From Dictyostelium discoideum (Eukaryota), in contig CM000150.2 of NCBI GenBank assembly GCA_000004695.1, positions 3,904,001-3,968,000 on the forward strand: a stretch of DNA of 64,000 bases. Direction: 5' to 3'. Below the pieces are notes generated by a model that ran no database searches, had not been told where the DNA came from, and saw only the letters and a program-made list of their open reading frames with translations. A program made the position numbers and the translations under genes. Positions 4,491 through 64,000 of the stretch are shown here, in pieces; positions within the stretch are counted from its first letter, which is position 1; every line of letters starts with the position of its first letter.

Positions 4491-5660
4491 TTAAAATAGA
4501 AATAAAATTAGTAATCTTTTTTTTTTTTTTTTGGTTTTTTTTTTATGGATAGAAAAATTATATATAATTTTTACATTAAAAGAAGTTTCTGGTAATAAAT
4601 ATAATTGAGTTTCAGAAGTTGGAATTTGAGATAATTTATCTAAATAATTTGAACTAACCAAATAACCAGTTGTACTAACATTTGAATTATCAATACCTTT
4701 ACGAATGAGACGAATTACCTCGGCGTCAGCTTGACTTTTTAAACGTTTGGATTCAGCAAAACCTTTAGCATTTTGAATGGATACAGTTTTATCAGACTCT
4801 GAAGAGAGTACGACCTTTGCAGCCAAACCTTTACTTTTTACAATCATACTTTCTTTTTCACCTTCAGCATGGAGTATAACGGATCTCTTTTCACGATCTC
4901 TTTGTATTTGCATCTCCATTGCATGTTTAATATCTTTTGGAGGTCTAATACCAGCTACCTCGACACGTTTAATAGTGACACCCCATCTTTCAGCATCTTT
5001 CATTGTACGTTCTTTCAATTGTGAATTAATGAATTCCCTCGATGAGAATGTATCATCTAATGTCAATGTTGCAATAATATTACGTAGAGTAGTTTGTGCT
5101 AACAATTCAACAGAGTCTGGTAAATTTTGAACTGAATACACAGCTGCCATTGGATCTGTCACTTGAATATACATTAGGGCATCTATATTAATTTGAACGG
5201 TATCTTTGGTAATAACATGTTGTCTTCCAAATGTAATAACATGTTCTCTCATATCGATTCTATCAGTATTTTGAATCATGACTTGAGTTTTCTTTGCACC
5301 AACAGGTAAATCAACATATCTCCAATGTATAACTCTTGGTGAATCTATAAAAGGTGCTAAAATATGTATACCAGGATTTAAAATTCTATGATATCTACCA
5401 AATCTTTCAATGATCATAACTTCAGTATGTCTAACTATCTTTATTATCTTTTTTGAAATTATTAATGTTAAAAATAATATTGAAAATACAATTATATACA
5501 ATGCTATTGCCAATCCAACTCTGGCATTTGAGTCTTCTCCATCACCACCACCACTATTATTGATATTATTATTTGGTATAAATGTACTACTACTATCTGC
5601 CCATGTTCCAACAATTCTATCACCATTAGTTTTTAAATAATCTAATATTTCAATCCCCAT
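4491..5660 (-). CDS. stomatin / SPFH (band-7) family protein with N-terminal hydrophobic hairpin; 3' end may be spliced (alternative last exon 4447..4485)
   Basis: Strong match to the stomatin core (LAQTTLRNIIATLTLDDTFSSREFIN...ERWGVTIKRVEVAGIRPP...ILHAEGEKES). Hydrophobic segment VGLAIALYIIVFSILFLTLII precedes the SPFH domain. The unspliced ORF ends in a K/F-rich tail translated from A-rich DNA. A donor AAT|GTAAAA at 4574 and acceptor TTTAG at 4486 would give ...LLPETSFN+FATSISKSIKND* instead. Confidence 0.75.
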   Translation of the reverse strand: MGIEILDYLKTNGDRIVGTWADSSSTFIPNNNINNSGGGDGEDSNARVGLAIALYIIVFSILFLTLIISKKIIKIVRHTEVMIIERFGRYHRILNPGIHILAPFIDSPRVIHWRYVDLPVGAKKTQVMIQNTDRIDMREHVITFGRQHVITKDTVQINIDALMYIQVTDPMAAVYSVQNLPDSVELLAQTTLRNIIATLTLDDTFSSREFINSQLKERTMKDAERWGVTIKRVEVAGIRPPKDIKHAMEMQIQRDREKRSVILHAEGEKESMIVKSKGLAAKVVLSSESDKTVSIQNAKGFAESKRLKSQADAEVIRLIRKGIDNSNVSTTGYLVSSNYLDKLSQIPTSETQLYLLPETSFNVKIIYNFSIHKKKTKKKKKRLLILFLF

Positions 5661-5749
5661 TCTTTTTTTTTTTTAAAAAAAAAAAAGGATTTAATATGTA
5701 TTTTGTTGTTTATTATTTATTTATCTATATATTAATGTATTTATTTATA

Positions 5750-5805
5750 TTTCTTTCTTTATTTCTTTATTTCTTTATTTCTTTATTTCTTTATTTCTTT
5801 ATTTC
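5750..5805. repeat. (CTTTATTT)n minisatellite, about 7 units
   Basis: Direct reading: tttctttatttctttatttctttatttc... Confidence 0.85.
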
Positions 5806-6093
5806 TTTATTAATTTATTTATTAATTTATTTATTATTTTTATAAACAAAGTAGAAAAAAAATTTTTCTTTGATTTTTTTTTTTTTTTTTTTTTTTATTT
5901 TAATATTTTTTTTTTTTTTTTTTTTTCAGTTGGCAAATTTATCAAACACCAAAAATTTATATTATTATTATTATAAACTGTAAAATAAATAAATTAATTA
6001 ATAATAAATATTAAATAATAAATAATTTATTTTAATATGAACTTAATATAGAAATAGTATTCAAAATACACAATTCGATATAAAAAAAAAAAG

Positions 6094-6124
<31 letters not shown>

Positions 6125-6223
6125 CAAAAATTTTATTTTTAGAATTTAATTATTTATCATTATGAATATCATGGTTTAAGTTTTGATCAAAACAGAATTG
6201 ATTTTGTTTTTAATAACCACTTT

Positions 6224-6258
<35 letters not shown>

Positions 6259-7016
6259 AGATTTATTAGTTTAAATCTGTTTATTATTAGGTTTTATAAA
6301 AATATGATTTTGTTTTAGTGTTTAACTTTTGTAAGTATCCATCTTGAGGTATTACAGCTGTGGCTATTGAAGTTCTAACTAATCCAATTCTATTGTTTTT
6401 AATAGAGCTTGTAGAAATAAATTATGATCCTCATATAATTTAGTACTCTGCGGTATGGTTGAAAAATAATTATCATAAAACTATTGTCAAGGATGCTTTT
6501 AACCGCACCTTAAAATTATAATATTTATTGATTAATTTTCATTTTTTTTTTTTTTTTCATATTACCTGTCGTATCCCACAAGTTAAAAAAAAAAAAAAAA
6601 ATAAAAATAAAAATAATAATAATAATAATAAAAATAATAATAATAATTATTATTGTTTTTTTAATAAGTAACACATAATAATAAATATAGAAATAAAAAT
6701 AAAAATAAACAAAATATAAATATAAATTTTATTTATAAATAGTTCAAATTTCCTTTATTAATATTCAAATAAACGAATGCATAGTTTCATTTGACTAATT
6801 AATAAAATGAGTCATCCAAAATAAAAAAAATAAAAAAAAAAAAAAAATAAAAAATATCATTTTTTAAAAATTTTTTATTTTTTATTTTTTGTTTTTTTTT
6901 TTATTTTTATATTTAATTAATGTCAAGTAATAAAATAAAAAAATAAAATAATTATAACAATAATAATAATAATAAAATAATAAAAAAATAAAAAAATAAA
7001 TATATAGAATTTAAAA

Positions 7017-8100
<1,084 letters not shown>

Positions 8101-8176
8101 ATAAAATAAACGATTTTTAAATAATAGAACAAAAAAAAAAAAAAAAAAAAAAAGAGTAATAACAATTTTTATTATA

Positions 8177-8269
<93 letters not shown>

Positions 8270-8888
8270 ATTAAATAATAATTTTAAAATAAAAAAAATA
8301 AGGAAATTATATGAAATAATCATTTAATTTAAAATGATGGTAATATATAAATAAATAAATAAACTAATTAATTAATTAATTAACTATGTGATTAATAATA
8401 ATTAATCATAATGATTAAAAAAAAAAATAATAATAATAATAATAATATAAAGTTTTTTTTTTATTATTTTATTTATTTTTATTTACACGTGCTTTAAACA
8501 ATTTTTCATTTGTTTTTCATATTTAATTTAATATGAAAAATATATTAATATATTTTATTTAAATTTTAATAGTGTTATTAAATTGGAGTGGATTTTTATA
8601 ATTATTTTTTCATTTGCTATAAAAAATAAAAAAATATTAAAAATTAAATAAAAAAAATTAAATAAAAAAATAATTAAAAAATGGGAAAATTTAAAAAAAA
8701 AATATTAAATACATGTGCACCACAAACACACTCTTGATCTTTTAAAAATAAAAACAAACAATGACTAAACAATCTAAAACTAATTGTTAATTGTTAACTA
8801 CCTTTATCAATCTTCCTGGGGAATTAAAATTTTAATAAAAAAAAAAAAAAAAAAAAAAAATAAGAATAAGAAAAAGGATTACTTGTTG

Positions 8889-8926
<38 letters not shown>

Positions 8927-9000
8927 CATTATTTAATATATTAATAAAATCACACAAACCACAATAAATAATAATAAAAAAAATAATAAAATTTAAAAAA

Positions 9001-10017
9001 ATGACAATGGAATTTATAGTATCAAATTATAATACTGGAAATTATAATATTAGTAATAGTGGAGAAATATTTAATACGGGAGGGTTAAATAATCCATTGG
9101 CAGTAATTTATGGGTATTTAGGATGCAATAAATCTATATTAATTGGCCAATATTCGAGTATTTGGACAAATAGAGGATTCAATGTTTTAATTTATTATCC
9201 ATCTTCAATTTTATCAAATTATAGAAAAGGTGTGAAAATTTTAAATACATGGATAAATAAATATTTTAATGAGAATCCATATAGGTCAAAAGTATTAGCA
9301 TTTCATTCAATTTCATCTGGTGCAAATTGTTTAGCATATCATTTGAAATTAATGATGAATGATAAATACTCAAATTCAATATCAATGATTAAAGCATGTT
9401 TATTTGATAACATTTCAAATTTTAATAATTCAATATTATCTTTAAAAAATAATTTAATTTCAAGTGGTGATATTTTTAAATTAATAAGATCAATATTTTT
9501 ACCTTTTTTTATACCTTTATGGGGTTGGGGGGGAAAAAATGAGTTTAAATATTTAATTTCAAAAAATGTAAAACCAAAACCAAAAATATTTTTTTTTTTT
9601 TTTGCTTTTTATTTATTTTAATTATTATTAATTTTTTTATTTTATTTTTAAAAAAAAAAAATTCTCTAAAAATAGAATAAATTTCATTATTTAGTAATTT
9701 ATAATAGTGGTTATAATAATAATGATAATAGTAAAACTTTTATTAAAACTTTAAAACAAAAAGGAAATCAATTCAATGAAAAAAATTCAGATTCTGGAAT
9801 TATTTTAATTGAAAAAGTAATTCACGAGAATAATTCACAAATATATTCAGATTGTACAAATCAATTGATTGATTTAATAATATACAATTACAATAAATGT
9901 AACAGTATCGATAATTATAATAATAATAATAATAATATTAAAACCAATAATAGTAATAATAATAATAACAATAGTAATATTAGACATCAAAATAGTAAAA
10001 ACACAATGTATTGGTGA
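9001..10017 (+). CDS. TMEM53 / DUF829-like alpha/beta-hydrolase-fold protein; join(9001..9567,9676..10017)
   Basis: NPLAVIYGYLGCNKSILIGQYSSIWTNRGFNVLIYYPS matches the TMEM53 core (PLVILLGWGGC...Y..G.....Y). Donor AAT|GTAAAA at 9568, acceptor AAAATAG at 9675. Second exon is in frame and ends TGA at 10015-10017. Confidence 0.55.
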
Positions 10018-10309
10018 AATTAAAAAATTTTTAAATAAAAATAAAAAAAAAAAAAAATTTAATTTAATTTTGGAACTTTCAAAAAAAAAAAAAAATATCA
10101 AAATAATTTTTATTTAAGTTTTAAATCTAATATGAAGGTGGACAGGAGGGTTTGTATTTTTCATTTTTTTTTTTTTTTAATTTTTTTTATTTTTGAAAAT
10201 TTTTTTGAAAAAAAAAAAAAAAAAAAAAAAAAAATAAAAAAAAGGTTTAATATATTTTTTTTGATCACTTTTAATTAAACTGTTTAAAATAAAAAAAATA
10301 ATAATAGGA

Positions 10310-11255
10310 ATGGAATCAGTTATTGGACAAGTAAATCAAGTAATTAAAACTACATTAGGACCAGAATGGGATTTAAGTTTACTCATTAGTAAAGCTTTAG
10401 GTTATGGAATTATTGCAGGCTCATTATTATTAAAAGTACCACAAATACTTAAAGTTGCAAGTAGCAAATCTGCAGAATCTTTATCTGCTTCATCAATTGC
10501 CATGGAAAATATTGGGTATGTTAAAAAACATATATATATATATATATATATATTTTAAAAGATTATAATTAATTATTAATTAATAAATTATCATCACCAT
10601 AATCGAAATAGTTTCACAATTTCACTCCTTGCAGGTTATAAATTATTGAATCCATTTTCAACCTATGGTGAAAGTGCATTCATTTTAGTTCAAAATTTCT
10701 TCCTTTTAATTTTAGTTTTAAAATATACTCAAAAATTAAATGCTGTCTTTTTTACTGGTTTAGCTTTGTAAGTATTATTTATATATATAAAAAAAAAAAA
10801 TAAAAAAATAAAAAAAATAAAAAAAATAAAAAAATAAAAATTAACCCATTCCATCCACCCATCCATCGATCCATCAATTTAATATTAAACAGATATGCAG
10901 GAGCTGTTTTTGCTGCATTAAATTATGTCGATAACGATGGTTTCAATTTATTATTGGTAAATTTTAAATTATATATTTATAGATATATATAGATATATAG
11001 ATAATGATCATTATATTAATATAGGGAAAAATTAATAATCAATTTATTTTTACATACTATAAATATATATATAATAAATAGAAACTCAATATTCCATTAT
11101 TCATTATTAGCAAATTCCCACAAATCATTACCATCATCAAGAATAAGAGTGTTGGTCAACTTTCATTCATTACTTGTTTCTTAAATTTGGCTGGTAGTTT
11201 AGCACGTGTTTTCACAACCATCAAAGAAGTTAATAATCCAGTTAGTAAGTATTTA

Positions 11256-11308
<53 letters not shown>

Positions 11309-11463
11309 TACTTTTTTTTTTTTTCTTTTCCTAATAATTTTTAGTTTTATTAAGTTATGGAATTGGAAGTTTCTTAAATAGTATTATTTTAATCCTCTTC
11401 TTTGTATATGGAACTAAAAAAGTACCAGCAAGAAAACAAGTTGGTACTAAGAAAACAAATTAA
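10310..11463 (+). CDS. MPDU1 / Lec35-like PQ-loop protein (mannose-P-dolichol utilisation defect 1 homolog); join(10310..10515,10612..10767,10893..10956,11082..11244,11345..11463)
   Basis: PQ-loop (YGIIAGSLLLKVPQILKVASSKSAESLS). Second half GQLSFITCFLNLAGSLARVFTTIKEVNNPV matches MPDU1 [30 protein letters not shown]. All five exons join in frame across donors GG|GTATGT, TT|GTAAGT, TTG|GTAAAT and A|GTAAGT and acceptors ending AG. Product is 235 aa. Confidence 0.75.
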
Positions 11464-11624
11464 ATTAAAGTTCTTAGTTGGAAAAATAATAATAATAATA
11501 ATAAAAAAAGGTTTTAAATCAATTATTTGTGTAGACTACTATTTACAATTTATTACTCTTTTCGTGTTTTGTTTTTTTTTTTTTTTTTTTCTTTATATTA
11601 TAAATTTTAATTTATGATCACTTC

Positions 11625-11986
11625 TTATTTCTTTTTTGGTTGTTGAGTTTTTTTATTTTTTGTGCTATCTTCTTCAGCTTTTAAGACTGTTAATTTGCCA
11701 TTGTTTTTCTTTAATCTGGTAGTCATTTCAGTTTCAATCTTTTGAGTGATAGCTGATTCTAATTTTCTATTTACTTTAGCTTTGGCTATTGAAATGGCTG
11801 ATTTATTAACTTTTTTCTTTTTATTTAAACCAACTAATTAAAAAAAAAAAAAAAAAAAAAAATTAATTAGTTATTATGTAATAAATATTATTATTATTTT
11901 TATGATTTTGTTGTAAAGTATTTTGTACCTTTAGAAACTTTATTGGTTGCACCAGCTTTTTTAATTTTTAAATTTGATTGTGCCAT
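11625..11986 (-). CDS. L10K / UPF0390 family small basic protein (Leydig-cell-tumor 10 kDa protein homolog); exons 11929..11986 and 11625..11833
   Basis: MAQSNLKIKKAGATNKVSK + VGLNKKKKVNKSAISIAKAKVNRKLESAITQKIETEMTTRLKKNNGKLTVLKAEEDSTKNKKTQQPKKK. Donor AAAG|GTACAA, acceptor TTAATTAG, phase 1. Product is 87 aa, lysine-rich. Confidence 0.55.
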
Positions 11987-12815
11987 TGTTGTGTGTGTAT
12001 GTATGCGTATAGTTGGGAAAAAAAAAAAAAAAAAAAAAAAAAGAAAAAAAGTTTAAAAAACGAAAAAAAAAAAAATTTTATTTTCACTTTTTTTTGGAAT
12101 AAAAAAAAAAAAAAAAAGAAAACTATTTTTAAATAATCAAATAATTATCTTTCTAATTAAGTCATTTTATTTTTATCTTTTTTTTATTTAATAGTTTTAA
12201 TTTAATTTGTTTATTTTTATTTGTTTTATTTTTTTTTATTTTTTATTTTTTATTTTTTTTTTTATTTTATTTTTTTTTCAAAATTGTGGTGTGGGTGAAA
12301 AAAAAAAGAAATATATTTATCTTTCATATTTTCTAATTTTATAATCTTTTTGTAAAAATAATAAAAACAAGAAACATCCTTTTTTTATATTATTTAGGTA
12401 TTATTAATTTGATTTATAATAAATTCTTGAATTAATTATGTGAACTTGGCCATCCACATTTTTTTTTTTTTTTTTTTTTTTTTTCAAAATTGTTTTTTTT
12501 TTTTTTATTTTTTTTTTTTTTTATTTTTATTTTTTTTTTTTTTATTTTTTTTTTTTTTTTATTTTATTTTTTTTTTTTTTTTTTCTCAATCATTTACACA
12601 TCATTACTACATATATACTTTTTTGACCCATTTATTAAAGAAAAAAAAAAAAAAAAGTATTTTAAATAATAATAACTTTTAAAATTAAATAGTTTTTTTT
12701 GTTTTTTTTTTTCAAATAATAATAACTAATAATTAACAAGTAAATAAAATTTTTAGAATAGTAATATTATAATAGAAAAAAAAAAAATTAAAAAAAAAAC
12801 AAAAAAAGAATAAGA

Positions 12816-24008: not shown

Positions 24009-24022
24009 TTGTTAAAAATATA

Positions 24023-24095
24023 TGAGATAGATGGGGATCGAACCCACGACCTAACCCGTGTGAAGGGCTCGTGATAACCACTACACTACTTTCCC
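24023..24095 (-). tRNA. tRNA-Val (anticodon CAC), 73 nt
   Basis: Minus strand GGGAAAG TA GTGT AGTGGTTA TCAC G AGCCC TTCACAC GGGTT AGGTC GTGGG TTCGATC CCCAT CTATCTC A. Canonical D-loop (AGTGGTTA) and T-loop (GGTTCGATCC). Anticodon stem AGCCC/GGGTT, loop TTCACAC. One A-A mismatch (positions 5 and 68) and one G-U pair in the acceptor stem, so functionality is not certain. Confidence 0.6.
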
Positions 24096-24299
24096 ATAGG
24101 CTGGAATGTTATCCTAAAATTTTTGGGAATTTTTATGATTCTTTTGTAATAATTTAATAGTTAATATTAATCACTATCAATCGGACCGCATCAATAAAAA
24201 GAAGACTCGAAAAATTCAGCCACAACTGGAACTCGAAACTCATGACCATAAAAATCCCGGAACACTTCATACCATACTGCTCATATAACACCAACTACT

Positions 24300-29878: not shown

Positions 29879-32251
<2,373 letters not shown>

Positions 32252-59576: not shown

Positions 59577-62500
59577 CTATTGTTTTAATAAATTTAATAC
59601 CATTTGTTCAGTAATATTCCAACCATCATAAGAACCAAAAGAAATTAAAAGTGATTTTGTATTTTTTGAAATTTTAAATTCTTTAGACATGTGATATTTT
59701 GTGGGAGTAAAATCTAAAGGATGAAAAGTTCTTAATCTGATACAAGTTTTATCATTTGATTCTGAAATCATTTTTTTCCAATTTATTAAAGTGGTTTCTT
59801 TGTAATTAAAATTTTTTTTTATCATTAGAAATATTTCATTTGTTGTTTGCAATTCACCATTTAATGAAATAATATTTAAAGTATTTATTTTTGTTTTTGA
59901 CCAACAACCTTCATTAAAGATTAAATTAATAATATTTTGTGCTACCCATGTTACTGGACTAATAAATAATGAAGTTGGTTCAATTGGGAAATATTTAGTA
60001 ACACTAATGGATTTAATTATTAATTGAAGCAAATCTCCACTATGACCAATACCAGTATGTGGATTTGAAAATATTGATGGTAATCTAATTGTCATTGCTG
60101 GAATACCTCTTGATGATGCTTCTAATAGTAAATGTTCACAGATAAGTTTACTTTGAATATAGCCACCTGGTAAATTATTTAAATTACTTAATGAAGGTAT
60201 TCCAACTTGGTATTCATCAAATTCGATTTCATCATTTAATTTTTGACCAAAGAAAATTGAAAATGAAGATAAATTTACAATTGGTATCATTGGTTTATTT
60301 GTACCTTTCGAAACTGATAGCTTTATAAACTCTTTAGTTGAGTCTACATTGGTTGGTTTAATTTCATCATAATTTGCATTTAAATTAATATCAGCACCAC
60401 AACTTAAAATTAAATTTACTTGATTTGAAATTTCTAAATACATTTTATCAGATAATCCAAGTTTACTCTTTCTTAAATCTCCACGGACTGGGAAAATCTT
60501 TTCCAATTCTGATTGTTCAAACATTTCAAATAATTTATGGTGTTTTAAATTGTCAATTATTTTATTCATTAAATCGATTTGGTCAGATAAATGACCTGAT
60601 CTTGTTAAACAATAAATTTTTGAACAGTTTTTCATTTTTACTAAATTCAATAAAAGATAACCTCCTAAAAATCCAGTTGAACCACTTAATAATATAACTT
60701 TATCCATTTTATTATCAATAATTAAATCTGATTTAATTGATGATGCAATTATTGTTTCATCTAATTTTGCTTCATTCTTCCAATATTCAAATGTTTTTGT
60801 TGTTGTTGTTATTTCATTGGTATTATTAACCACTGTACTACTTTTATTTTTACCTTCTTTCTTTTTATCTAATGAATTTGTTATAATTTTAATTGATGAT
60901 GAAATTGTATTTGTTTGAAGTTGTTGAATTGTAATAATATTACCTGATAATTCTTTATCTACCCAATTTTTTAATTGAACGATTGATAAAGAATCAGCAC
61001 CATATGCAGAAAGTTTAATATCGATATTAATCTTTGATATTTCAATTGATAATACCTCTGAAACTTTCTCTAAAAACATTTGATTTACAGAGTTTTTATT
61101 ATCCTGATTACCATCATGACCCAATTGATTAACTTTATTCTTTTCTTCTAAAGAAACTTGATAATCAATCTTTGAAAAATTATTTTTTTGTGGATTATAT
61201 TTTGTTATATTTGAGAAATTAAAACTTGAAACTATTAAATTTGTTGATAGTTCTTGATTTTGGATTTGTAAATCTAATGAACCTAAAATTGTATTGATTG
61301 AAAGTGGATTGAATCCTAAATTTTCAAACATTACTGAAACATTTTCATTTCTTGATACAAATCCAGTTGATTTTATTAAACCATAACTTGTGCAAATTGA
61401 TGGTAAGCCAAGTGATTTTCTATACTGTGAGAATGATTCTAAAACATTATTTGCACAAACATAACTACATTGGCTTTCAGAACCTAATGATGAGGTAACT
61501 GATGATGCAATTATAAAGTTTTTTAATTTCCATCCCCTTTTAATTGATTGATCGTGTAAAATGATTGCACCAATTGTTTTTGCGCCAAATGAAATATCCA
61601 GAGTATCCATATTGATAGCTTCTACATTCTTTGTTATTTGATGGAATGCATAGTGGAATATTGAATCAATGTTATCAATATCATTTGAAACTTCATCGAT
61701 TGCTTTTCCCATCGAGTTTATATCACCAACATCAACGCTCTTGAAATGAAATTTTATATGTTTATTTCTATTTACTAATAGTTCTAACTGCCATTTCATT
61801 GATGATTTTGAAAGGATAATTATATTTTCAACTAATGGCGCAAATTTAACTATCCATTTTATAATTTCAAAAACTATACCAGATTGACCAGTAACTATTA
61901 TATTCTTTCCTAAATTATTTATATTGATTTGATAATTTGATTTTAATAATGTAAAATCTAAATTGGAAGTTGAATTGATTTTCTCCTTTATTAAATTACC
62001 CACTAAATCTGTATCATGATTAACAACAATTTTACCAATATGTTTACGTTGATTAATATATTCAAATGCATTTTTAATATTAACATTTGAATATTGAGTT
62101 ATTGGTAAATTATTAATTAATTCATTATTTTCAATTGCTTTTGATATTGATTTTAATAATTTCTTTAAAATTGGTGCAGCTATAAAAAGTAATTCTACAT
62201 TATGATAACCATAGTTGAATTTAAATTTCTTATTATCAATATACTCATTTGAATTCAAATGAGTGATTGATAAATCTACAATTCTACCACTTTTTGAAAG
62301 ACAATTGAAATTTGAATCCATATAATCACTTGATAATGTATTTAATATTAAATCTACACCTGTTTTATCCGAGCCTAATTCTTTAAGTTTATCTTTTATT
62401 TTTTGAACATAACTCTTATCTCTTGTTGAATAAATACCTGTAATTAAAGATCCATAGGTGTCACGTAGATATTTCTCTTTCTCTGGTGATCCAACTGTAA

Positions 62501-64000
62501 GGAAAATATAAGAACAATGACCTTTCCATTTTAAAATATTTAATGAAGATAAACCAACACCACCGGATGCTGAATGAATTAAAATTGATTCATAATTTTT
62601 TAAATTACCAATATTGTAAATACTATGAAGAGATGTTGAATAAACTACTGGTATTGTTGATGCTTGTTCATGACTTAAGTTATTTGGTTTAAAATAAATT
62701 GAACCTGAATCTATAATAGATTTGGATGATGCAGTGTTATATGCAGTACCATAAACTTGGTCACCAACTTTAAATTCACTACAATTGTTTTTGGATACTC
62801 TTGTAATGACACCAGAAAAGTCACTACCAAATTCTGGGTCATTAATATCACCCGTTTTATGATTGACCATTTCAGGTGGCACACTTCCAATGTATGTAAG
62901 ATAATCTTTATAATTTAATGCAAATGATTTAATTTCAACTTGGACTTCAAATGGTTCTAAATCTTTTGTCATTGGTTTTAATTCATATTCTAAATTTGGT
63001 GATAAAACTGCTACTAAATCATTTTCAACTAAATCTTGATATGATTCAGATTTGAATTTTTTTCTAAGATTTTGTTCTTTCTTTATTCTTTCAAAATAAA
63101 CTTTACCATTTCTAATTAAATATTCTTTTTGAATAGATATTTTCTTATCTGTTAATAATTCAATCAATGATACTAAATTCTTTTCATTATTATTATGAGT
63201 GTATTCAATAATTGATTCTTTATCGAAATCTAATGTGAATAGTTGTAGTTGTTGAAATTCATCGAAATATCTTGCAGCACCTATAACTGATGATGCTAAA
63301 TAATTATCTTTTCTTGAATCTGATGTTATCAATACATGTTTGCACATTGAATTAAGTTTTAATAGTTTTCTATTAATTTCTATGTATTCAAATGTAATTG
63401 ATTTAAAATTATCCAATGTTAATTGTTCCATTGTTTTTATAAAATAAATCACAGATTTATCGGTTATTGATTGTTTTTCTACAAATTCATTAAATTTACT
63501 GATTGTTGATATTATACTTAATATCTTGTCATCAGTTGATTCTAGTGATTTTAAAAATTTATTACAAATTTCACTGTCATCATTACTATAAATTATAATT
63601 TGATCATAAGAGTCTATATTTGGATTTGGTGATAATTCTGATAGTAATTGTGGTTTTCTTGTTTGAATGATTGATTTTTTATCATTTGAAATGATTGTAT
63701 CTTTAAAATTACATTGATCTAATAACTCTTTTATTTCAATTAAGTTATTTCCATCATTATTTATTAATATTAATTGACCATTTGGTACCATTAAATTATA
63801 AATCATATAAAGTGTAGCCTTAATATCATTTGTTTCCTTTTCTAAATCATTTATTAATACAATATCATATTGTGAAGGTTTTAATTGATTATCTTCGAGT
63901 AACAAAGGATCATTAATGCTATAATCTCTATAAAGTATGCTAACACGTTCATTGATGTGTGATAGTTTATCCTTGATTGATGAGGTTAATGATTGTGGGA
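59577..64000 (-). CDS. type I polyketide synthase, 3'-terminal portion (methyltransferase tail, ER, KR, ACP, NAD-dependent terminal reductase domains); continues beyond window end
   Basis: The minus-frame ORF runs open to position 64000. ER/MDR motif HSASGGVGLSSLNILKWKG. KR Rossmann NIIVTGQSGIVFEI. ACP phosphopantetheine site KLSAYGADSLSIVQLKNWV. Terminal reductase GSTGFLGGYLLLNL...YIQSK. Upstream continuation ...NDPLLLEDNQLKPSQYDIVLINDLE resembles a C-methyltransferase domain end. The track M at 63905 is a TTG, not a start. Confidence 0.8.
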   Translation of the reverse strand, partial: PQSLTSSIKDKLSHINERVSILYRDYSINDPLLLEDNQLKPSQYDIVLINDLEKETNDIKATLYMIYNLMVPNGQLILINNDGNNLIEIKELLDQCNFKDTIISNDKKSIIQTRKPQLLSELSPNPNIDSYDQIIIYSNDDSEICNKFLKSLESTDDKILSIISTISKFNEFVEKQSITDKSVIYFIKTMEQLTLDNFKSITFEYIEINRKLLKLNSMCKHVLITSDSRKDNYLASSVIGAARYFDEFQQLQLFTLDFDKESIIEYTHNNNEKNLVSLIELLTDKKISIQKEYLIRNGKVYFERIKKEQNLRKKFKSESYQDLVENDLVAVLSPNLEYELKPMTKDLEPFEVQVEIKSFALNYKDYLTYIGSVPPEMVNHKTGDINDPEFGSDFSGVITRVSKNNCSEFKVGDQVYGTAYNTASSKSIIDSGSIYFKPNNLSHEQASTIPVVYSTSLHSIYNIGNLKNYESILIHSASGGVGLSSLNILKWKGHCSYIFLTVGSPEKEKYLRDTYGSLITGIYSTRDKSYVQKIKDKLKELGSDKTGVDLILNTLSSDYMDSNFNCLSKSGRIVDLSITHLNSNEYIDNKKFKFNYGYHNVELLFIAAPILKKLLKSISKAIENNELINNLPITQYSNVNIKNAFEYINQRKHIGKIVVNHDTDLVGNLIKEKINSTSNLDFTLLKSNYQININNLGKNIIVTGQSGIVFEIIKWIVKFAPLVENIIILSKSSMKWQLELLVNRNKHIKFHFKSVDVGDINSMGKAIDEVSNDIDNIDSIFHYAFHQITKNVEAINMDTLDISFGAKTIGAIILHDQSIKRGWKLKNFIIASSVTSSLGSESQCSYVCANNVLESFSQYRKSLGLPSICTSYGLIKSTGFVSRNENVSVMFENLGFNPLSINTILGSLDLQIQNQELSTNLIVSSFNFSNITKYNPQKNNFSKIDYQVSLEEKNKVNQLGHDGNQDNKNSVNQMFLEKVSEVLSIEISKINIDIKLSAYGADSLSIVQLKNWVDKELSGNIITIQQLQTNTISSSIKIITNSLDKKKEGKNKSSTVVNNTNEITTTTKTFEYWKNEAKLDETIIASSIKSDLIIDNKMDKVILLSGSTGFLGGYLLLNLVKMKNCSKIYCLTRSGHLSDQIDLMNKIIDNLKHHKLFEMFEQSELEKIFPVRGDLRKSKLGLSDKMYLEISNQVNLILSCGADINLNANYDEIKPTNVDSTKEFIKLSVSKGTNKPMIPIVNLSSFSIFFGQKLNDEIEFDEYQVGIPSLSNLNNLPGGYIQSKLICEHLLLEASSRGIPAMTIRLPSIFSNPHTGIGHSGDLLQLIIKSISVTKYFPIEPTSLFISPVTWVAQNIINLIFNEGCWSKTKINTLNIISLNGELQTTNEIFLMIKKNFNYKETTLINWKKMISESNDKTCIRLRTFHPLDFTPTKYHMSKEFKISKNTKSLLISFGSYDGWNITEQMVLNLLKQ

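Follow-up and report, generated by a model that had tools for sequence, protein, structure and literature searches.

In the social amoeba Dictyostelium discoideum, the polyketide synthases (PKSs) are a catalogued family, all 40 members of which are modeled in a 2025 paper on the structure of Pks16 (PMC12828403). According to that paper, 21 of the 40 carry an offloading domain after the acyl carrier protein (ACP); two of these domains are chalcone synthases and the remaining 19 are most likely thioester reductases (TR). The core that precedes the TR is given there as ketosynthase (KS), acyltransferase (AT), dehydratase (DH), methyltransferase (MT), structural ketoreductase subdomain (KRs), enoylreductase (ER), catalytic ketoreductase (KR) and ACP, and some D. 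discoideum PKSs are noted as lacking the MT domain or its lid. Here we analyze a PKS gene whose 3' part lies at the end of a 64,000-nucleotide stretch of D. discoideum chromosome 1 (GenBank contig CM000150.2, positions 3,904,001 to 3,968,000), referred to below as the window. The gene appears to encode an intact, non-methylating, iterative highly reducing type I PKS that would release its chain reductively through a C-terminal reductase (R) domain, a reading to which we assign a probability of about 85%.

The gene is almost certainly one of the 19 reductase-ended D. discoideum PKSs. It shows no difference in kind from them, and its MT, a remnant here, is in a state that the paper notes for some members (PMC12828403). 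Because 21 of the 40 PKSs have been published with an offloading domain, our reading is one of a known architecture in a catalogued family; a reductase-ended organization is already routine among the PKSs of this organism. As a discovery the gene carries little weight, coming from a long-sequenced model genome in which some half of the 40 PKSs are already described as built in this way. The paper gives identified products for Pks1, Pks5 and Pks16 and for no other D. discoideum PKS (PMC12828403), so that none of the reductase-bearing synthases has a product recorded there. With a dead MT and an intact R domain, the synthase may be a comparatively simple candidate for learning what reductive release yields in social amoebae.

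Three described systems are close enough for comparison. Pks16, the fatty acid synthase (FAS) of D. discoideum, has the same core, a full DH-ER-KR set and an inactive MT, and a length of 2,603 residues (5,206 for the homodimer), according to the structure paper (PMC12828403). The present gene adds to such a core a reductase of about 400 residues. From the length of Pks16, we infer that it has no offloading domain after its ACP. The terminal R domain of MxaA, from the myxalamid PKS-nonribosomal peptide synthetase (NRPS) system (4u7w/4w4t), likewise stands directly after a carrier domain and has the motifs TGFLG and GGY.QSK in common with the R domain described here, but it is bacterial, follows an NRPS module, and is only about 25% identical. 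MxaA R performs a four-electron reduction to the alcohol, an outcome that cannot be read across to the Dictyostelium enzyme. Finally, the terminal reductase of the coelimycin type I PKS of Streptomyces coelicolor (8v1x) is the closest solved structure in fold; it is part of a bacterial assembly line of the modular kind, whereas the Dictyostelium PKSs are iterative, and its identity to the present domain is about 19%.

Domain organization and extent of the gene

On the minus strand of the window, a frame runs from position 63998 down to a stop codon at 59577-59579 without interruption, in agreement with the intact ORF of about 4.4 kb reported in a preliminary description made from the sequence alone. 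The window is very AT-rich (G+C 13-33%). At about 24% G+C a random codon has a chance of roughly 9% of being a stop, and a frame of this length is therefore not a chance occurrence; by our arithmetic its probability would be about e^-138. Domains were called with Pfam and NCBIfam hidden Markov models (HMMs), and residues are numbered along the 1,473-residue fragment encoded in the window. The HMM search, which the preliminary description had named as its own test, found ER, KR, ACP and R in exactly the order that it had proposed (Table 1), and the three motifs that it had quoted (GADSL, GSTGFLGG and YIQSK, the last within GYIQSK) are present at residues 1000, 1106 and 1279.

Within the ER, the Pfam matches cover residues 349-419 (ADH_N) and 545-659 (ADH_zinc_N_2), with the NADPH motif HSASGGVG at 475. 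The KR match spans residues 699-875 and includes TGQSG at 703 and YVCAN at 846. The ACP matches the model of the highly reducing PKS type, and its GADSL holds the phosphopantetheine-accepting Ser1003, encoded at 60990-60992. Residues 126-340, between the MT remnant and the ER, gave no Pfam match, yet they are conserved with paralogues (alignment columns ~430-567); by their position in the published order DH+MT+KRs+ER+KRc+ACP (PMC12828403), they would correspond to the KRs. No thioesterase family, PF00975 included, was among the Pfam matches at E <= 0.01 to the window fragment or to the extended gene described below, which argues against placing the enzyme with thioesterase-terminated PKSs or FASs and agrees with the earlier proposal that a thioester reductase stands in place of a thioesterase. 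One detail of that proposal failed: poly-asparagine insertions between domains were not found over the 1,473 residues, in which asparagines form runs of at most 3 and do not reach a total of 8 in any 20 consecutive residues.

Table 1. Positions of the PKS gene and its predicted domains in the window.
Feature	Position	Strand	Residues	Basis
3' part of D. discoideum type I iterative PKS gene	59577..63998	minus		Open frame of 1,473 codons plus stop
Degenerate C-methyltransferase-like domain, tail	63624..63998	minus	1-125	Motif II/III region (YDIVLIND...VPNGQLILIN); aligned with paralogue MTs; approximate boundary
MT remnant-to-ER region, putative structural KR subdomain (KRs)	62979..63623	minus	126-340	Position only
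Enoylreductase (ER)	62019..62966	minus	345-660	PF08240, PF13602; TIGR02824 E 1e-27
Catalytic ketoreductase (KR)	61374..61910	minus	697-875	PF08659 E 1.3e-24
Acyl carrier protein (ACP)	60840..61112	minus	963-1053	PF23297 E 3.4e-33; PF00550
Terminal thioester reductase (R)	59703..60695	minus	1102-1432	PF07993 E 2e-43; TIGR01746 E 6e-44

The gene continues upstream past base 64000 and so runs off the window, as had been noted. We extended it with a second D. discoideum assembly (GCA_054883475.1), in which the locus (L001) was found on a 3.2-Mb contig, JBTAPE010000039.1, by way of the neighboring CTL-like gene. Over 18 kb this locus matches the window at 99.7% identity, and it reaches 3.5 kb beyond the window end. 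The PKS product annotated on the contig has 2,805 amino acids (aa), of which the C-terminal 1,473 are identical to those of the window. The KS, AT and DH domains that could not be seen in the window are found in the extension, giving the Pfam order ketoacyl-synt (C-terminal end), Ketoacyl-synt_C, KAsynt_C_assoc, Acyl_transf_1, PS-DH, ADH_N/ADH_zinc_N_2, KR, ACP and NAD_binding_4; the annotated product also matches PF00109. Both the AT motif GHSLG and the DH motif HVVKGKFYFP are intact in the translated extension. The gene had been described as intronless, which holds for the part within the window; the KS-coding region contains a canonical GT..AG intron (GTAAGT ... poly-T ... AATAG), which lies at about L001 21333-21421, some 3.3 kb past the window end. 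The large second exon that follows this intron is open over all 2,599 of its codons. The architecture of the whole gene would thus be KS-AT-DH-(degenerate MT)-KRs-ER-KR-ACP-R, with the KRs placed by position. Collinear domains, recognizable AT, DH, ER, KR and ACP motifs, and nearest relatives among the dictyostelids together point to an iterative highly reducing type I PKS.

The terminal reductase domain

The evidence for reductive release centers on the domain that begins about 50 residues past the ACP. Its match to PF07993 (NAD_binding_4), for which the cut-off is 20.1 bits, reaches 148.8 bits and covers residues 1104-1356. The Rossmann motif includes TGFLGGY from residue 1108 (TGFLG, residues 1108-1112, encoded at 60663-60677), and in GYIQSK the putative catalytic pair is formed by Tyr1280 (60159-60161) and Lys1284 (60147-60149). 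When the domain is aligned with its dictyostelid paralogues and one bacterial homologue, the columns of the catalytic residues of short-chain dehydrogenases/reductases (SDRs), Asn148, Ser175, Tyr211 and Lys215, are invariant.

Comparison with characterized terminal reductases, which the preliminary description had recommended, gives the same nearest relatives in sequence and in fold. Among solved structures, those nearest in sequence are MxaA R (E 3.7e-28) and 8v1x (E 5e-21), followed by R domains of NRPSs and by carboxylic acid reductases. The alignment with MxaA R keeps not only the two motifs mentioned above but also the Arg after strand 2, in CLTRS here and CLVRS in MxaA. An AlphaFold2 model of the domain (mean pLDDT 79, pTM 0.84) is predicted to have the two-subdomain fold of R domains, and its best Foldseek matches are 4u7w (TM 0.76) and 8v1x (TM 0.80, the highest) over ~405-417 columns, then carboxylic acid reductases and NRPS R domains. 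The domain therefore looks like a bona fide, catalytically competent terminal thioester reductase.

Not every domain of this family need be a reductase. In fungal PKS-NRPS tetramic acid synthetases, non-redox R* domains catalyze a Dieckmann/Claisen-type cyclization, and such domains share PF07993 with true reductases, so that the Pfam match would suit either; the two were compared here by their motifs. R* domains typically lack the catalytic Tyr. Here the Tyr-x3-Lys pair is intact, and on that ground we reject a Dieckmann cyclase. The full DH-ER-KR set predicts, moreover, a reduced chain lacking the beta-keto group on which cyclization depends, and the nearest solved relatives are true reductases. 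Cyclization by this domain is hardly credible.

The degenerate methyltransferase

What had been read as the tail of an MT domain is indeed homologous to the MTs of paralogues P0018 (AX4) and P0038, with which it aligns, but it is degenerate. Compared with these paralogues, it is missing about 150 residues from the N-terminal lid and another 30 or so beyond motif III. The S-adenosylmethionine-binding motif I is ILDFSSGFAD, where the paralogues have ILEFGGGTAS and ILEIGSGIGQ, with SSGFA in place of GxGxG. The only match in the region is to PF08242, at 16.5 bits under a cut-off of 30, whereas the equivalent region of a paralogue scores 49.6 bits and matches five methyltransferase families. An active PKS C-methyltransferase would be expected to have an E/DxGxGxG motif I and a Pfam score above the cut-off. 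The region has neither, and the synthase is probably non-methylating.

Predicted chain assembly and release

Established PKS and SDR enzymology suggests how such an enzyme could work. The synthase would extend a chain iteratively from malonyl units on its ACP, much like a fatty acid synthase. Each beta-keto group would be reduced through KR, DH and ER and, with no C-methylation, the result would be a largely saturated, unmethylated acyl chain. The C-terminal R domain, an extended SDR, would then transfer hydride from NADPH onto the acyl-S-phosphopantetheine thioester and cleave it, releasing an aldehyde (two-electron reduction) or, with a second reduction, a primary alcohol (four-electron). 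Since the relatives and predicted fold of the R domain are those of terminal reductases and its NADPH-binding and catalytic residues are intact, the release as aldehyde or alcohol suggested in the preliminary description is a reasonable expectation. Which of the two it is, how long the chain is and what biological role it has are beyond what sequence can decide.

Because the MT is degenerate and the reducing loop is full, the enzyme may be viewed as essentially a FAS fused to a reductase. One could go further and imagine a single polypeptide devoted to making a fatty aldehyde or fatty alcohol, as the source of some lipid or signal specific to this species, although we consider this a long shot. 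If it were true, the loss of the gene in Dictyostelium citrinum, described below, would mark a recent species-specific change in chemistry.

Points against the reading and alternatives to it

Three observations weigh against an intact, reductively releasing synthase. The score of the R domain against TIGR01746, 150.7 bits over model positions 2-319 of 371, is below the curated cut-off of 213.35; in view of that score we regard the domain as a probable divergent eukaryotic member of this family. The first ~200 residues of the protein, including the KS active-site Cys, lie in exon 1, upstream of the intron and beyond the DNA that was read. In D. citrinum the orthologue has a large deletion and frame changes, so that the gene is not universally constrained in the genus.

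The low TIGR01746 score would also suit an R domain that is inactive or structural, the chain being hydrolyzed off or handed on to another enzyme. Some half of the PKSs of D. discoideum, probably with the FAS Pks16 among them, function without an offloading domain (PMC12828403), and one close pair of paralogues differs only in the presence of the R domain. An inactive domain would, however, have little reason to retain TGFLG, the Arg after strand 2 and the Asn, Ser, Tyr and Lys of the catalytic set, or to keep a 1.2-kb frame unbroken in such AT-rich DNA, and we find this alternative improbable.

The D. citrinum gene raises a different question. It lies in L002 (GCA_054859145.1, JBTAPK010000057.1) at 5655-12207 (+), inverted but with the CTL-like and RNase P p30 genes as neighbors, as in D. 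discoideum, and is the syntenic orthologue. A deletion of ~657 residues, equivalent to 566-1222 of the extended product (not of the window fragment), has removed the end of the AT, the whole DH and the beginning of the MT remnant. At least two frame changes are present, near 9873/9881 and 12043/12058, and the annotation divides the locus into two genes, of 1,396 and 699 aa. This orthologue is probably a pseudogene, dying in the sister species, though the frame changes may be assembly errors. A second fragment, still more decayed, lies about 3 kb off on the opposite strand (L002 15344-16512, -).

Decay in a sister species, together with the fragmentary gene models seen in other strains (P0103) and an MT that has already decayed, could mean that the D. 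discoideum gene too is a silent or decaying copy without a product. Against this stand the fully open 2,599-codon second exon with a canonical intron upstream of it, the fact that two D. discoideum genomes encode the same 1,473 C-terminal residues, and the intactness of every catalytic motif examined except that of the MT. A pseudogene in D. discoideum is rejected on the strength of the open exon and of the 1,473 C-terminal codons, identical in two strains; we consider a silent copy very unlikely. An intact synthase with reductive release thus remains the preferred reading.

Relatives among dictyostelid synthases

The top 46 matches of the homologue search were all dictyostelid or unnamed EukProt entries. 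Matches from D. discoideum and close Dictyostelium species are 42-53% identical to the query, whereas fungal and bacterial PKSs reach at most 29%. Core identity to other D. discoideum PKSs is 45-50%, and the best full-length match, paralogue P0001, aligns with 99% of the query, through the R domain, at 47% identity. Searches with the whole fragment and with the R domain alone returned no self-match, only paralogues of at most 50% identity and a D. citrinum fragment.

P0001 is itself part of an instructive arrangement. In another D. discoideum assembly (L003 1-13098; GCA_054859385.1, JBTAPF010000011.1), two tandem PKS paralogues are near-identical through the ACP; one stops after it (2,514 aa, like AX4 DDB_G0295667), and the next, P0001, runs on into a thioester reductase. 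R domains thus seem to have been gained or lost between recent duplicates. P0001 is followed by a free-standing methyltransferase gene of 472 aa and then by a third PKS of 2,931 aa.

Short gene models from newly sequenced Dictyostelium strains (P0102, P0104, P0105, P0106 and P0107) contain NAD_binding_4 only or spliced pieces of PKSs. They are probably split or mis-modeled PKS C-termini, not free-standing reductases.

Genomic neighborhood

The identity of the locus is fixed by its neighbors. The product of an intronless ORF at 56032-57552 matches AX4 protein DDB_G0269978 (CTL-like, UniProt Q55CN8) at 100% identity, which places the window on D. discoideum chromosome 1. The PKS gene itself may be pks3 (UniProt Q55CN6, PKS3_DICDI), two accession numbers from Q55CN8; searches of the literature and supplements for Q55CN6, PKS3_DICDI and nearby DDB_G identifiers yielded no mapping to a pks number.

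The gene for RNase P p30 is convergent with the PKS and ends about 125 bp from its stop codon. Along with it, the downstream neighbors of the PKS within the window include the CTL-like transporter, a Sas10 homologue and a 14-3-3 gene, all of housekeeping types. No obvious tailoring enzyme was found among these genes, on the within-window side of the PKS, and with neighbors of this kind a biosynthetic gene cluster on the downstream side is unsupported.

Two further features of the window lie apart from the PKS. The sole tRNA is a tRNA-Val with anticodon CAC at 24022-24096 (-). An ORF of 790 aa at 29879-32251 (-) sits in a stretch of strongly negative AT skew (-0.33); its N-terminus matches the transposase-type helix-turn-helix families HTH_28 and HTH_Tnp_ISL3, and it may be derived from a mobile element.

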